A DNA stretch of 64,000 nucleotides, from positions 4,526,001 to 4,590,000 of the forward strand of contig CM035355.1 in the NCBI GenBank assembly GCA_020137815.1, in the 5' to 3' direction. Shown here in pieces: positions 5,605-55,963 of the stretch. The DNA comes from Hormiphora californensis (Eukaryota > Animalia > Ctenophora). Position numbers and translations under genes: made by a program. The stretch's first letter is position 1; every line of letters starts with the position of its first letter. The notes beneath the pieces were generated by a model. The model made no database searches, was not told where the DNA came from, and saw nothing but the letters and a program-made list of their open reading frames with translations.

Positions 5605-7105
5605 AAGTCGGATTTTTTGAAACTGTCACCCCCCTAGAGTTTTCAAATTTCTTTAAATGACCATAAGTCCGGTTCCTGATGAGATAGAGACTTGAAATTT
5701 GGAAGTTACGAAGATCTTGCTAAGTTCTTGCGAACCTCCAAATTTCAAGTCTCTATCTTATCAGGAACCGGAGAAATGACAAATTTTTTATTTAAGGGGG
5801 TTGGCATACGTTGCAGGCCCCTTATAATATAATATAAGGGGCCTGGAGGGAATACCGCGCTAGGGGGGAATACATAATCAATCATATCTCCGGTTTCAGA
5901 TAAGGTACAGAAATCGTTTTGGTAGCGTTGGAAAGAGGAAGATAACAGCTTTCAAATGCAACCGGTTTCAGGTCTCTATCTTATCAGGAACAGGAGATAT
6001 GAACCAAACTCCGCAAAATCGAGTGCGGTAAAATCAAAATTTGAATGAAATTTTAAAAAAGGTGTCCCTGCAAGAATCTGTGACGTCACTTTTTGAAAAC
6101 AACCCATCTTTCAACGGCTATTGCTCAGCCTCCTTAAGTCCAATTAACTTCTCTCAAAAACAGCAAGGTAGATAATCGTCAGATCTAACAACTGGTGAAA
6201 GAATCAAGTCAAACGGACTTCAGGAGCCAAAGTTATAAGCACCGCCGTTTTTTCGACCGCAAAGTTATCTTCGACCCAGCCGGGATCAGGCCAAACGCGC
6301 GCGCGGCATTCCCTCCAGTCCCCTCGTTGCGGGGGTGCGCGCATGAGGGGGCTGCAGCGCATTCCAATTAAGGGGGGTGACAGTTTCAAAAAATCCGAGT
6401 AAAGTCGGATTTTTTGAAACTGTCACCCCCCTGGGTATTTTCAAATTTCGTAAATGACCATGAATCCGGTTCCTGACGAGATAGAGACTTGAAATTTGGA
6501 GGTTACGAAGATCTTGCTAAGTTCTTCCGAACCTCCAAATTTCAAGTCTCTATCTTATCAGGAACCGGAGATATGTCAAATTTTGTTAATTCAGGGGGGT
6601 GACAGTTTCAAAAAATCCGACTTTAAAGTCGGATTTTTTGAAACTGTCACCCCCCTGAATTAACAAAATTTGACATATCTCCGGTTCCTGATAAGATAGA
6701 GACTTGAAATTTGGAGGTTCGGAAGAACTTAGCAAGATCTTCGTAACCTCCAAATTTCAAGTCTCTATCTCGTCAGGAACCGGATTTATGGTCATTTACG
6801 AAATTCGAAAATACCCAGGGGGGTGACGGGCGCCGTTACGATCTGGGTGTTTGGTGGCCTGTTTACAGGTGCGCGCTGCCAAAAAAGTTGATTCACTAAA
6901 ACGGCTCTAACCGCCGAACCAATCAACCGTTTTGGCTAATTCAAAGTTTATCTGGTAGGGAATGTCAAGGCCTAACCCCAACCCAAACCCCAACCCTAAC
7001 CCTAACCCTACTTTAGCCCTAACCCTAAAAAACCGTTTGTCAGCACTCACGAAACACCCAGATTTTAACGCTGGCCGGGGGTGACAGTTTCAAAAAATCC
7101 GACTT
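5605..7105. mobile_element. Cluster of TA-flanked MITEs with TIR AAGTCGGATTTTTTGAAACTGTCACCCC
   Basis: TIR copies at ~5605, 6372-6398, 6402, 6595-6623, 6626 and 7078-7105. Same family at 26896-27046 and ~35350-35563. Confidence 0.8.
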
Positions 7106-15343: not shown

Positions 15344-25927
<10,584 letters not shown>

Positions 25928-36316: not shown

Positions 36317-51779
<15,463 letters not shown>

Positions 51780-52145: not shown

Positions 52146-52685
52146 TTGGACAAAAATGTAGCTGTAATTTAGTAATGAGACCAGGCCAGGCCCGAGAGAC
52201 AGTTCAGTGGTAACTGGGAGGTCATGTGTGATGGAAATGAGAACTAGAGACAGATTTGAGTTGCACTTTATTGAGGAAAATAGCCCTTTTTGGAGTCTGA
52301 GACAAGCAAGAGTGAAACGAAATGCAGCGTAACGAACCTTATTTCTTTGTAACTCAATGTGTTTTTTGCCATTTTGTTTTGTATTACACATTTTAAAATC
52401 TACTGACAACATTTACACAACCTTGAAAATGTGCCGATTTTATTTCTATATGTTTGGTTTCCCTAGCCACGAAGACGGAGGGCGCGGGGACCTGATTTGT
52501 TTTAAATCATAGTTGTCAGCAGAAAAGTGGCGCGCGGGGAACCATCTCTTCCACTTGAGATGTGAGCGCTATCAGATTAGCGCCGCGCGAATTGCTAAAT
52601 GCTGACATTTTGTAACGTGGGTCTCGCGCGGGACACCAAGTGACCGGGTCCACTGAAGAATGTGGCCTGGTTCCAAATGGATATA

Positions 52686-52826
52686 CAGTCGGACCCCGAT
52701 TTACCGGGATGCTCGGGGGAAAGGGTTTTGCCCGGTAAATCGGGGTGCCCGGTATATCGGGGCGAAATACTGTTAATTTCTTATATCGGGGGAACTTTAT
52801 CCTCCCGGTAAATCGGGGTCCGACTG
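52686..52826. mobile_element. TA-flanked Tc1/mariner/pogo-type MITE with TIR CAGTCGGACCCCGATTTACCGGG
   Basis: Perfect TIRs with TA on both sides. Degraded relatives at ~3855-3930, 15553-15690 and ~37858-37940. Confidence 0.88.
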
Positions 52827-53424
52827 TAGCCAATGTTCCGGAACATTCCCTAGATTCTAGAAGTACTTAGTAAAAAGTCACTTAACAAAATCTAGAGGGC
52901 TCTAGAAGTTCTTTGCATGTCGATCTTTGCATGTCGATGGTCGGGCTCTAATTTGAAATAGCTTCTGTAGCCTTCGATTTGAAGTTTTATTAATATTATT
53001 ATTCAAAATCTGAGAGGCATGAAAATTGAAATACAGCATCCTTGATCGTAGAGTTTGGTGAAAGGAATTGAATGGCCTATAATGTAGGAAACGAAATAGA
53101 AAACACGATACTTGGGAGTAAGAATAAAGTCTAGAAGGCAAAATAAACATGACAATGGGCAATTATAAGTATTAACAATAATCAGAGCTAATACACGTCA
53201 GCAGTCAGCGATGATCGCAAAAAAGTGCGATAAACAGAATGAACTTCCCTAGTAGTCAGAAGAATACAGCTAATAGTCATAATCCACATGAATAATGAAC
53301 TAAAAGACTGGGATCCAGTCAATTCATAACATTTTCGATGAAAAAGTAAATCATATTTGAGTTAGTTGGCTACTACATCTACAGATCTAATAATGCATTA
53401 TAATGTCTCTCTCTCACACCCATC

Positions 53425-55963
53425 TCACAGGATTGAACACCAAGAGGAGGTAGATGGAGGTCCGTGTCCGCACTGAGAGACAGGGTCCTCATACCACTTG
53501 GAAATGAACTGATTCTGTATTCCAATGACCTTCCCAAACGCCCTGATAGTTCCTTCGATATCAAACTCAGCGGCACCTGGTATGTGGGGGATATATCGGG
53601 TTACAAACTCTCTTATGAAACCTGTTCATGCCACGCTGTTCAATGAACTAGCTAGGTATACCATGAGGAGGAACTTTTTCTATAAATTTCAGATCAAATT
53701 ACTAAGTTCGTTAGTCCTTCATTTCCAGCTCCTGTGGAGCGCGTTTCAAAAATATCAGGTGTCTAGCTCTGGTTAGTCTACAACTATTATACACAACTAC
53801 ACATTTTGAGGGGTACATCACCATACCTGGCTGGATGCTCTGTGGTAACTATATCGTATCATGTTGAGGGGTGGGGTACATCATCTAACCTGGTTGGGAG
53901 CTGTTTTTGTAGTTGTACAATTCAGCAATGATAGCATCTTGAACAAATGTCAGGAGGATCTGGAGGTGAATCAGCTCCACTTTAATGATCCTGTGCATAC
54001 TTCCCATCCTGTCCAGCACGTTCAACATGCTCCCATCGTAAGGCTTGGTAACCAACCTGGGGGGGGGACAGTACTAGTAGGGGGAACTAGAGTTTGGTAA
54101 CCAACCTGGGGGGGGGGGACAGTACTAGTAGGGGAACTAGAGTTTGGTAACCAACCTTGGGGGGGGGACAGTACTAGTAGGGGGAACTATAGTTTGGTAA
54201 CCAACCTGGGGGGGGGACAGTACTAGTAGGGGGAACTATAGTTTGGTAACCAACCTGGGGGGGGGGGGACAGTACTAGTAGGGGAACTAGAGTTTGGTAA
54301 CCAACCTTGGGGGGGGGACAGTACTAGTAGGGGGAACTAGAGTTTGGTAACCAACCTGGGGGGGGGGAACAGTACTAGTAGGGGGAACTAAAGTTCGGTA
54401 ACCAACCTGGGGGGACAGTACTAGTAGGGGGAACTAAAGTTTGGTAACCAACCTGTCATGGGGGGGGGGGGAACAGTACTAGTAGGAGGAACTAAAGTTT
54501 GGTAACCAACCTGGGGGGGACAGTATATAAGTACATTATACTAGTAGTAAGTAGGGGAGCTGGGATTCAGTAGGACTGCGGGGGAACAGTAACTACCAGG
54601 GGATCAGAATTCAGAGGAATTCCGAGAAAGGGACTGAAAATTCAATTTTCACTTCTCATACTATTAGGAATGTATGGAACTGAATCTGAAGGAAGGAAAC
54701 CTGATTATCATGTGGCTGGGAAAAGATCATTGGTTGATGGAGACCCGATCAAGAACAAGATTTTCTACAATTCTAACCTTGCTAGATAGAGTTTTAAAGC
54801 TCCCTTTCTCATTCCAATCTGAGGCTTGTTCTGGTCATAGTTGTCAAGAGTTGAAGATGAATTATCGACTTCTCCGTCATGTTTCTCTTTTTCTCCGTAA
54901 AAAATCTAAAAAAGATTCGTGAGTAGACGTTTTGTGTGATGTTTATACTGCTGACTACGGTGGCAGATTCCGGCCAAGTGTTTTTTAGTCAAGTGAAATA
55001 TTTTTGCTTGAAGTTTTATAAAAATTTTATTTCAAAATAAAAATAAACATGTCCTTAAAATTATTGGCCGGAATCTGCCACGCGAGTGGCAGATCTCGGC
55101 CAAGATTCTAAAAAAACCTTGGCCAGAATCTGCCAACCACGTGGCAGATTCCGGCCAACAAACTGAAACTTACTTATAGCAAAGCGAAAACCGCTGTACC
55201 CGACTAATTTTGATACGCTGAATCACGTAAGCAACTTTTCCAATCCCTCAGAGGTCGGGAAAGTGTCCTAATTGAGCATAATAGGGTCTAATTGACCCCA
55301 CTTACAACTTTTCACCTGGAAACGATAGACGCTTATGTGAAGGCACTATTCCGACTAATTTTGATACGCTGAATCACGTAAGCAACTTTTCCAAGCCCTC
55401 CTTATTTTGAAATAAAATTTTTATAAAACTTCAAGCAAAAATATTTCACTTGACTAAAAAAACACTTGGCCGGAATCTGCCACCGTAGCTGACAGCTCAG
55501 AAAGAACTTTAAGAAAGAACTATAAATAGAATTCTATAGAATTCTATAGAATTCTATAGGGGTCCTGCTTGATCTACCGAAGACTCACAAGCCACAGAGT
55601 GCAATCCATGCGCGAGAATTTCCCAAAACGTATCACTTACACGTTTTGTACAATCAAATGAGAAGAGCTTGTCGTAAACAGCGTCAACCAAGTCAGGCAA
55701 TCGAGGGGCGAGGATACTCGCAGAGGCTGAAATAGTAAGTGTAGTATCATAGTGAGAATAGGTATTTCATTGTAATTACAGCTGTAGTCAGTACAGTAAC
55801 TGTAGTGTAGAGCAAGTCAAGATTAAGTAAACAGAGCTGCCTGTCAGTTAAACTCACCATGCACAAGGGCAATGTCTTTCTCCCCAAAGTCTAAGAAATC
55901 GCAGATGTATTTGTATCTGTAGACCAGATCAGAGTACAGTTTGTATTCATTGATATGCTGCAT
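53425..55963 (-). CDS. Protoglobin/globin-sensor-domain protein, 212 aa, with C-terminal CaaX (CSIL). Exons 55858-55963, 55641-55726, 54778-54905, 53890-54056, 53425-53576
   Basis: Spliced protein: MQHINEYKLYSDLVYRYKYICDFLDFGEKDIALVHASASILAPRLPDLVDAVYDKLFSFDCTKRIFYGEKEKHDGEVDNSSSTLDNYDQNKPQIGMRKGALKLYLARLVTKPYDGSMLNVLDRMGSMHRIIKVELIHLQILLTFVQDAIIAELYNYKNSSQPGAAEFDIEGTIRAFGKVIGIQNQFISKWYEDPVSQCGHGPPSTSSWCSIL*. Intron phases 1, 0, 2, 1 all match. The motifs VDAVYDKLFSFD, LVTKPYD..M...LD..G.MH and RAFGK..IQN match the protoglobin family as I recall it. Confidence 0.87.
54047..54525. repeat. ~49-bp minisatellite built from the protoglobin exon-4 splice acceptor
   Basis: About 10 copies of ggtaaccaacctggggggggacagtactagtagggggaactagagttt. 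Confidence 0.92.
54955..55488. mobile_element. MITE with ~85-bp TIRs (CTACGGTGGCAGATTCCGGCC) and 4-bp TSD CTGA, in protoglobin intron 2
   Basis: ctga|CTACGG...CCGTAG|ctga. Internal repeats of tggcagattccggcc in both orientations. Confidence 0.85.

Follow-up and report, generated by a model that had tools for sequence, protein, structure and literature searches.

A 64,000-nt stretch of the genome of the ctenophore Hormiphora californensis (contig CM035355.1, positions 4,526,001 to 4,590,000; hereafter the window) carries, on its minus strand at 53425..55963, a five-exon gene for a 212-residue globin. Profile and fold show this window protein to be an S-family sensor single-domain globin (SSDgb/Sgb), and its C-terminus is a CaaX-type prenylation motif, C209-S-I-L, at the position where the hydrophobic tail helix of the orthologue from Bolinopsis microptera begins. 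What appears to be new is the S-family globin in ctenophores, a tail helix that is common in eukaryotic SSDgbs, and the replacement of that helix by CaaX; the family itself is already known, including one animal group, the bdelloid rotifers. Our literature search returned no report of a ctenophore protoglobin; most subscription papers lay outside its reach, and the supplements of the metazoan horizontal gene transfer compendium, PMC3287990 and PMC7771090 may list one.

The initial annotation had proposed this five-exon, in-phase model of 212 aa ending in WCSIL-stop. Its quoted motifs all lie on the minus strand at this position, and the transcripts bear the model out. RNA evidence consisted of contigs from eight of the ten listed runs (X1-X8). 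The four introns, all GT-AG (131, 735, 721 and 313 nt), were each joined in at least two studies and splice in phase; two contigs from different studies, X1 (730 nt) and X6 (815 nt), span all four junctions.

55972..55973, minus strand: acceptor AG for trans-splicing; the spliced leader joins 8 nt upstream of the ATG (one X1 contig)
55858..55963, minus strand: exon 1; ATG at 55963; residues 1-35; N-terminal helix and start of helix A
55727..55857, minus strand: intron 1; 131 nt, GT-AG, phase 1; joined in X1 and X6
55641..55726, minus strand: exon 2; residues 36-64; helix B with Tyr53
54906..55640, minus strand: intron 2; 735 nt, phase 0; joined in X1, X4, X5 and X6; contains a MITE-like inverted repeat (54955-55488)
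54778..54905, minus strand: exon 3; residues 65-107; Phe66, Arg97 and Leu101; no distal His
54057..54777, minus strand: intron 3; 721 nt, phase 2; joined in X1, X4, X6 and X8
53890..54056, minus strand: exon 4; residues 107-162; proximal His128 at 53995-53993; helix G
53577..53889, minus strand: intron 4; 313 nt, phase 1; joined in X1-X4, X6 and X7 (6 of 8 runs)
53425..53576, minus strand: coding part of exon 5; residues 163-212; helix H, linker, CaaX and stop
53428..53439, minus strand: CaaX motif C209-S-I-L, where the hydrophobic helix of the orthologue begins
53246..53424, minus strand: 3′ untranslated region, at least to 53246; a separate contig extends to 53129

In a single contig, X1, a 12-nt loose end at 55973 together with the shared AG is the 3′ end of the ctenophore spliced leader (leader sequence from PMC8527503); the same 12 nt match the window's own leader copy at 47327-47286. 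Because the leader is joined 8 nt upstream, the first ATG is taken as the start, and the protein N-terminus lines up with where bacterial and eukaryotic homologues begin. A 49-bp tandem array at 54045-54519 (9.4 copies) carries the exon-4 acceptor ten times. The nine upstream copies were rejected as functional sites: each leads to a stop after five codons and none is used by any contig, all four bridging contigs joining at 54056. Contamination was ruled out by the four GT-AG introns, the spliced leader, a copy in Pleurobrachia bachei and a Bolinopsis copy on a 20.9-Mb contig. Within the 64-kb window, tblastn found no second copy of the gene, and no concealed exon encoding a helix tail was found. 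A search with exon 4 yielded a single protein out of 5 candidates, the P. bachei model P0001 (sb/3472403, 166 aa), which is identical at 158 of the first 163 residues of the window protein. It stops after exon 4 and lacks exon 5, and hence helix H and the CaaX motif; this early stop is probably an annotation error. Two short gene calls, P0072 and P0169, are close to exon 1 and then read into the intron at the same position, and judged by sequence they probably come from another ctenophore that shares intron 1.

Searched exon by exon, the PF11563 profile matched exons 2, 4 and 5 individually and in the order of the profile, with exon 4 scoring 25.3 bits where the cut-off is 25, and exons 1 and 3 alone gave no match. 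The P. bachei model scored 82.1 bits (E 5.7e-23) and the Bolinopsis orthologue 111.6 bits. The protoglobin label of the initial annotation holds for the PF11563 family but not for the branch, which is that of the sensor single-domain globins rather than the archaeal protoglobins. The SSDgb group is described in PMC3287990 and PMC7475203, where bdelloid rotifers are named as the animal case; a Naegleria member is described in PMC3287990. With 212 aa, one domain and no output domain, the window protein fits the SSDgb size limit of <~260 aa. Protein-atlas look-ups returned PF11563 clusters only, NCBIfam holds no model for these globins, and a Foldseek comparison found nothing at E up to 0.001.

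An exhaustive homologue search yielded 275 representatives at E up to 0.001. Names were looked up for 30 of these hits, and the named matches are Pleurobrachia, Bolinopsis microptera, Rotaria, Rhizopus, Catenaria, Sorochytrium, a chytrid, Cyanophora, Fabomonas and Tsukubamonas. A total of 462 bacterial relatives were confirmed and 80 kept, with labels mostly of Planctomycetota and Verrucomicrobiota. The resemblance to planctomycete and fungal proteins, suggested in the initial annotation, was confirmed: the Sgbs most closely related to the window protein come from fungi, rotifers, protists and planctomycetes. Identity to the window protein over scored pairs was 43-49% for bacterial, 37-41% for fungal and 32-34% for rotifer sequences. 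Two family members depart from the single-domain layout: P0014, placed inside the ctenophore clade, is an EF-hand pair fused to an SSDgb, and in P0002 (Cyanophora paradoxa), a model of 2207 aa, a weak Arf-like region is followed by four SSDgb domains in tandem.

The full-length fold, modelled on the Bolinopsis orthologue (predicted local distance difference test [pLDDT] 88.8), is a 3/3 globin with an extra N-terminal helix. Its best structural match was 5ohe (Z 19.4, root mean square deviation 1.8, 152 aligned), followed by 8h17 (Z 19.1), with protoglobin 7ute (Z 16.6) and neuroglobin 2vry (Z 13.2) further down; the top seven matches are all S-family. The fold of the P. bachei model, which lacks helix H, ranks in the same way, with globin-coupled-sensor domains first, then protoglobin and then animal globins.

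The candidate proximal His of the MGSMH motif was sustained, as the His128 column aligns with the helix-F His of Geobacter and Methanosarcina in a profile alignment. The helix labels, which we take to be B10 for Tyr53, CD1 for Phe66, E7 for Arg97, E11 for Leu101 and F8 for His128, define a Tyr/Arg/Leu distal pocket without a distal His. Across 79 alignment rows, these positions are conserved in 75 (Tyr53), 73 (Phe66), 74 (Arg97), 71 (Leu101) and 75 (His128). Animal F-family globins are marked by a distal His at E7 and by introns at B12.2 and G7.0. The window gene has Arg97 at the inferred E7 and introns after residues 35, 64, 106 and 162, none near the inferred B12 (residue 55) and none in helix G, so that its separateness from the neuroglobin and globin X lineage holds. 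An N-terminal Gly2/Cys acylation signal is also absent, residue 2 being Gln and the first Cys residue 21.

At the other end of the protein, the CaaL motif of the type used by geranylgeranyltransferase-I (GGTase-I) lies at the true C-terminus, as had been claimed. Contigs of six of the eight runs (X1, X2, X3, X5, X6 and X7; four studies) cross the stop unjoined, and no alternative last exon without CSIL was seen among the contigs, which omit rare forms. Of 5018 stop-ended six-frame peptides of the window, three end in C-x-[IVL]-L, which gives the chance rate. CSIL on Rho-of-plants (ROP) proteins is geranylgeranylated, not farnesylated, in vitro (bioRxiv 10.1101/2023.09.04.554920).

Conservation of the motif in orthologues, by contrast, did not hold: a hydrophobic helix closes the protein in Bolinopsis and in three clade members, and two further clade members are tailless. 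The Bolinopsis protein XP_063682118 (LOC134816989; 235 aa) is identical to the window protein at 114 of 190 positions (60%). Its tail reaches a hydropathy of 1.98 over 17 residues, with a helix predicted at 219-233 after helix H and a linker, and in the alignment the window protein ends where this tail helix starts. Helix tails occur in 17 complete representatives (n=63) and a Cys at position -4 in one; the corresponding counts among bacterial genome copies (n=79) are 0 and 1. All five named fungal sequences have a hydrophobic tail helix. In the careful 35-row tree, a helix-tailed member splits first in the ctenophore clade and Pleurobrachia next; the quick LG tree (79 rows) leaves the branching order of the helix-tailed member open. 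The lipid anchor was held to have been added on domestication, but the helix tails of Bolinopsis and other clade members point instead to an anchor swap. This is the simplest reading because the orthologue and relatives are helix-tailed and the window protein stops at the helix start, and CaaX likely replaced an older helix anchor.

The diverged X6 contig, which carries the P. bachei residue at position 46, provides a measure of constraint. Among its listed coding differences, nine of ten are silent; none of the listed differences changes CSIL-stop, and indels lie directly behind the stop. Over the last 21 codons, 0 replacements were found against ~5.4 expected if neutral (P ~0.005), counted on this one contig with 11 of its 22 differences listed. 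The other 11 are inferred to lie near piece ends, no listed difference being <31 nt from an end. Judged by sequence, acylation of Cys198 could occur as well.

Horizontal acquisition, the origin first suggested for this globin, fared less clearly: the free trees part the ctenophores from fungi and rotifers, but approximately unbiased (AU) tests reject neither transfer nor vertical descent. The trees are unrooted. The first has 79 rows; the second, a quick posterior mean site frequency tree, drops 20 long-branch or redundant rows; the AU rounds and the careful tree use 35 rows. All trees give the ctenophore clade full support and none nests it inside bacteria, and the branch that parts fungi and rotifers from ctenophores, protists and bacteria has support of 97, 96 and 96/92 in the three free trees. 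The first AU round gave p 0.285 for ctenophore+rotifer, 0.616 for ctenophore+rotifer+fungi, 0.624 for ctenophore+bacteria and 0.434 for ctenophore+protists; its tree search was incomplete, because two constrained trees beat the free tree. The second round gave p 0.125 for ctenophore+rotifer and 0.287 for ctenophore+rotifer+fungi. An outgroup from distant PF11563 proteins was dropped for poor alignment (at most 17.5 bits). The gene is older than the Pleurobrachia-Bolinopsis split, and from tree placement alone P0003, P0153, P0155, P0176 and P0014 are likely ctenophore. A metagenome scan for DNA of these clade members gave 80 loci at 38-46% identity, none of the clade, and a genome scan found none among 102 candidates.

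We lean slightly toward a transfer from a non-animal into the ctenophore stem, before the Pleurobrachia-Bolinopsis split and independent of rotifers. A protist is then the likelier donor, and a bacterium the less likely one. The separation of fungi and rotifers in all three free trees favors transfer, as do the bacterial copies, which are nearer than fungal or rotifer ones, and two reviews that, in the parts available, name bdelloids alone among animals (PMC3287990, PMC7475203). It is tempered by the AU results for ctenophore+rotifer and ctenophore+rotifer+fungi and by the absence of nesting in bacteria; moreover, short bacterial branches inflate identity, and choanoflagellate or sponge copies may be hidden, since names were looked up for 30 hits. 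The word 'globin' is absent from the main text, as available, of a Mnemiopsis transfer study (PMC6005172). The criteria of that study for transferred ctenophore genes include AU rejection of an animal-constrained tree, for which the present values are p 0.285 and 0.125, and signs against contamination, of which the window gene shows spliceosomal introns and a copy in another ctenophore.

Vertical descent of a tail-anchored globin that is ancient in eukaryotes, with loss from almost all other animals, falls just short of an even chance. Copies occur in Cyanophora (a glaucophyte), Fabomonas (an ancyromonad), Tsukubamonas (Discoba) and four fungal lineages, and one is reported from Naegleria (PMC3287990). 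In the 79-row and reduced trees, named eukaryotes and named bacteria fall on the two sides of a weak branch (87, 81); the helix tail is shared with fungi, and an opisthokont clade is not rejected by the AU test. This descent would need many losses, however; ctenophores and fungi are not united in the best trees, and in the careful tree bacteria do not make up one side of a branch.

As a working model, we give an even chance to a lipid-anchored haem dimer at membranes that buffers O2 and scavenges nitric oxide (NO) and oxidants and does not relay a signal. By parsimony, the globin of the ctenophore ancestor would have been tail-anchored by a helix, which the lineage of the window gene cut at its first turn, keeping a CaaX end. 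GGTase-I would probably geranylgeranylate Cys209. Dimerization through the N-terminal, G and H helices, as predicted for the Bolinopsis orthologue, would place two C-termini on each dimer, and two lipids per dimer would offset the missing polybasic patch. The fungal fungoglobin FglA is presumably an Sgb of this clade. Fungoglobin binds haem and O2 and is required below 0.5% O2 (PMC11034785), and the window protein very probably would bind both in the same way. A role as a stress effector, re-reduced by host reductases, seems somewhat probable.

The dimer was modelled with two copies of the Bolinopsis globin domain, which scored 0.88 against 0.00 for the best of three controls, with contacts agreeing to at least 92% and pLDDT of at least 83; haem accompanied the model and was unscored. 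Of 30 solved pairs, 21 reach the dimer mark, and of 23 single chains none does (17 of 29 and 0 of 30 for eukaryotes); related sensor-globin dimers have been solved, so the pass may reflect structures already familiar to the predictor. At the interface, 34 of 53 aligned residues are identical in the window protein. The bacterial relatives bear on function through their neighbors: among 160 loci, which are related and not independent, 74 have an Rrf2 regulator gene head-to-head with the SSDgb gene, and in 9 an FNR-like Cys-rich gene takes the place of Rrf2. Among the 137 loci that extend 700 nt or more upstream, the Rrf2 count is 68. Examples of the Rrf2 pairs are L136:896-1489 and L137:921-1361, minus strand, with 114-235 nt between matches. 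By analogy, this layout favors a regulated stress effector over a sensor.

Several observations weigh against a prenylated haem protein of this kind. In the pocket, the loop after His128 (the FG corner) is six residues shorter than in Bolinopsis, and it is also shorter than that of the Geobacter sensor; judged by sequence, the cut may disturb haem binding. Clade member P0176 has an equally long cut with its His intact. The place of FglA in this clade is presumptive, and both the full-length fold and the dimer were modelled on the orthologue rather than the window protein. In the tail, the constraint on the last 21 codons is drawn from one contig, and for the CaaX codons and stop alone 1.3 changes are expected (P 0.27, not significant). 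The I-L of CSIL could be left over from the hydrophobic helix. There is no Lys or Arg in the 15 residues before Cys209, and thus no polybasic second signal; such an upstream signal is common, not obligatory, in GGTase-I substrates. Two other CaaL proteins were not prenylated in the ROP study, and a basic patch may matter (bioRxiv 10.1101/2023.09.04.554920).

The initial annotation cast the protein as a sensor, and a prenylated O2/redox sensor at the membrane, passing its signal to a separate partner, appears unlikely. Its best fold matches are true sensor domains, relatives are fused to EF-hands (P0014) or repeated four times in a large protein (P0002), and fungoglobin has been termed a candidate sensor (PMC11034785). 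Yet the 212 aa include no output domain, no partner is known, and the bacterial copies stand beside divergent Rrf2 or FNR-like regulators; for the first and last of these reasons, a stress effector is better supported than a sensor.

About as improbable is an incidental CaaX: truncation would have removed the tail helix and left a cytosolic protein, in the manner of the bacterial forms and of the clade members that have no tail. P0176 and P0014 are indeed tailless, the polybasic patch is missing, conservation of the CaaX codons alone is not significant, and 1 of 79 bacterial copies has a Cys at -4, presumably by chance. Against this, GGTase-I has been proven to accept the exact CSIL when it stands on other proteins, purifying selection acts on the tail as a whole, with indels starting directly behind the stop, and two rotifer-type relatives end in a basic patch followed by a Cys at -4. 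These two SSDgbs, P0118 (Rotaria sordida CAF4066437.1) and the rotifer-like P0075, end in CICS or CLCS, a possible independent prenylation signal; P0170 (Rotaria) does not end in this way. A degenerate globin that has lost haem binding and now serves as a membrane scaffold is very improbable: the shortened FG corner adjoins His128 and model confidence is lower there (81, 78), but all five pocket positions are retained, pN/pS is ~0.03, and P0176 keeps its His with a cut of the same length.

Elsewhere in the window, the ctenophore spliced leader occurs as an exact copy of 42 nt (47327-47286, minus strand) that is not followed by a GT donor. It lies 141 nt before ORF1 (ATG at 47145, 413 aa) of a long interspersed nuclear element (LINE) that occupies 47327-42549 on the minus strand; ORF2 (42980-45982) encodes endonuclease and reverse transcriptase domains, and (GTTT)n arrays flank both ends (47331-47741 and 42549-42637). 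From its appearance, a trans-spliced mRNA of the LINE was reinserted together with the leader. Ctenophore genomes contain hundreds of leader copies (PMC8527503), and LINE reinsertion could account for some of them. A second LINE ORF (17215-20736, minus strand; 1173 aa, endonuclease and reverse transcriptase) has no leader copy that we found nearby. Elements resembling miniature inverted-repeat transposable elements (MITEs), with perfect inverted arms, lie within intron 2 (54955-55488; arms of 32-60 nt), just upstream of the gene (56064-56342; 88 nt) and just downstream (52684-52828; 26 nt). Degenerate interstitial telomere-like hexamer arrays of ~10 copies each occur at 6971-7028 and 57311-57369.

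In a survey with animal-type globin probes, neither P. bachei nor the rotifer Adineta vaga was reported to have a globin (PMC7771090). Pleurobrachia, scored as globin-less, has a sensor-family globin, and ctenophores join the bdelloids as a further animal group in which SSDgbs occur. The function of SSDgbs has hardly been studied, and the PDB contains no solved structure of one; the window gene offers a small animal representative that is expressed and has its switch in one residue, Cys209, and the CaaX globin and its tail-helix orthologue form a natural pair for testing anchor type and location. The globin is also relevant to how O2 and NO are handled in an early-branching animal without NO synthase. 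In pilot tests, Pleurobrachia, which lacks NO synthase, suffered no immediate toxicity from NO-donor doses that were toxic to Bolinopsis (PMC10073611). If the move from helix to lipid puts an NO scavenger at the cell surface, it might explain this tolerance, which is a lead only, because Beroe also tolerated the doses and Bolinopsis has the gene. It is conceivable, though rather doubtful, that Pleurobrachia and bdelloids separately took up a microbial S-family globin and each made its C-terminus a prenylation signal. These would then be the first prenylated globins and a convergent replacement of lost membrane-bound animal globins; no prenylated globin was found in the literature searched, by titles and abstract openings.

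Among known systems, the archaeal protoglobins (Methanosarcina 2veb, Aeropyrum 7ute) share the Pfam family, the stand-alone form and the N-terminal extension. They differ in giving no phmmer PDB match at E up to 10, a profile E of 6e-4 at best, 15% identity where Sgbs reach 40-49%, and a Z of 16.6 against 19.4 for the best sensor domain. Globin-coupled sensors (AfGcHK 5ohe, Geobacter 2w31, HemAT 1or4) are the best fold matches (Z 19.4, 17.9 and 16.3), with Tyr B10 and His F8 aligned, whereas they carry kinase, methyl-accepting chemotaxis protein or other output domains of their own and are 16-17% identical. Membrane-tethered globins with proposed lipid-protection or sensing roles are known in animals, where globin X and others are N-acylated (PMC7771090), and in Acanthamoeba, whose truncated globin AccaN has a predicted C-terminal helix (PMC4081604); these belong to the F or T family and use N-acylation or a helix rather than C-terminal prenylation. 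FglA of Aspergillus fumigatus is likewise a stand-alone globin that binds haem and O2 and supports low-O2 growth; the available text (PMC11034785) mentions no CaaX, and ascomycete-type Sgbs are more distant. The SSDgbs of fungi, bdelloids, Naegleria and planctomycetes are single S-family PF11563 domains of <260 aa with 32-49% identity over the globin; many of the eukaryotic ones end in a hydrophobic helix, whereas the window protein ends in CaaX and has an FG corner six residues shorter. XP_063682118, an orthologue or close paralogue from the same ctenophore clade, differs in its tail helix, its full-length FG loop and its annotation as uncharacterised.

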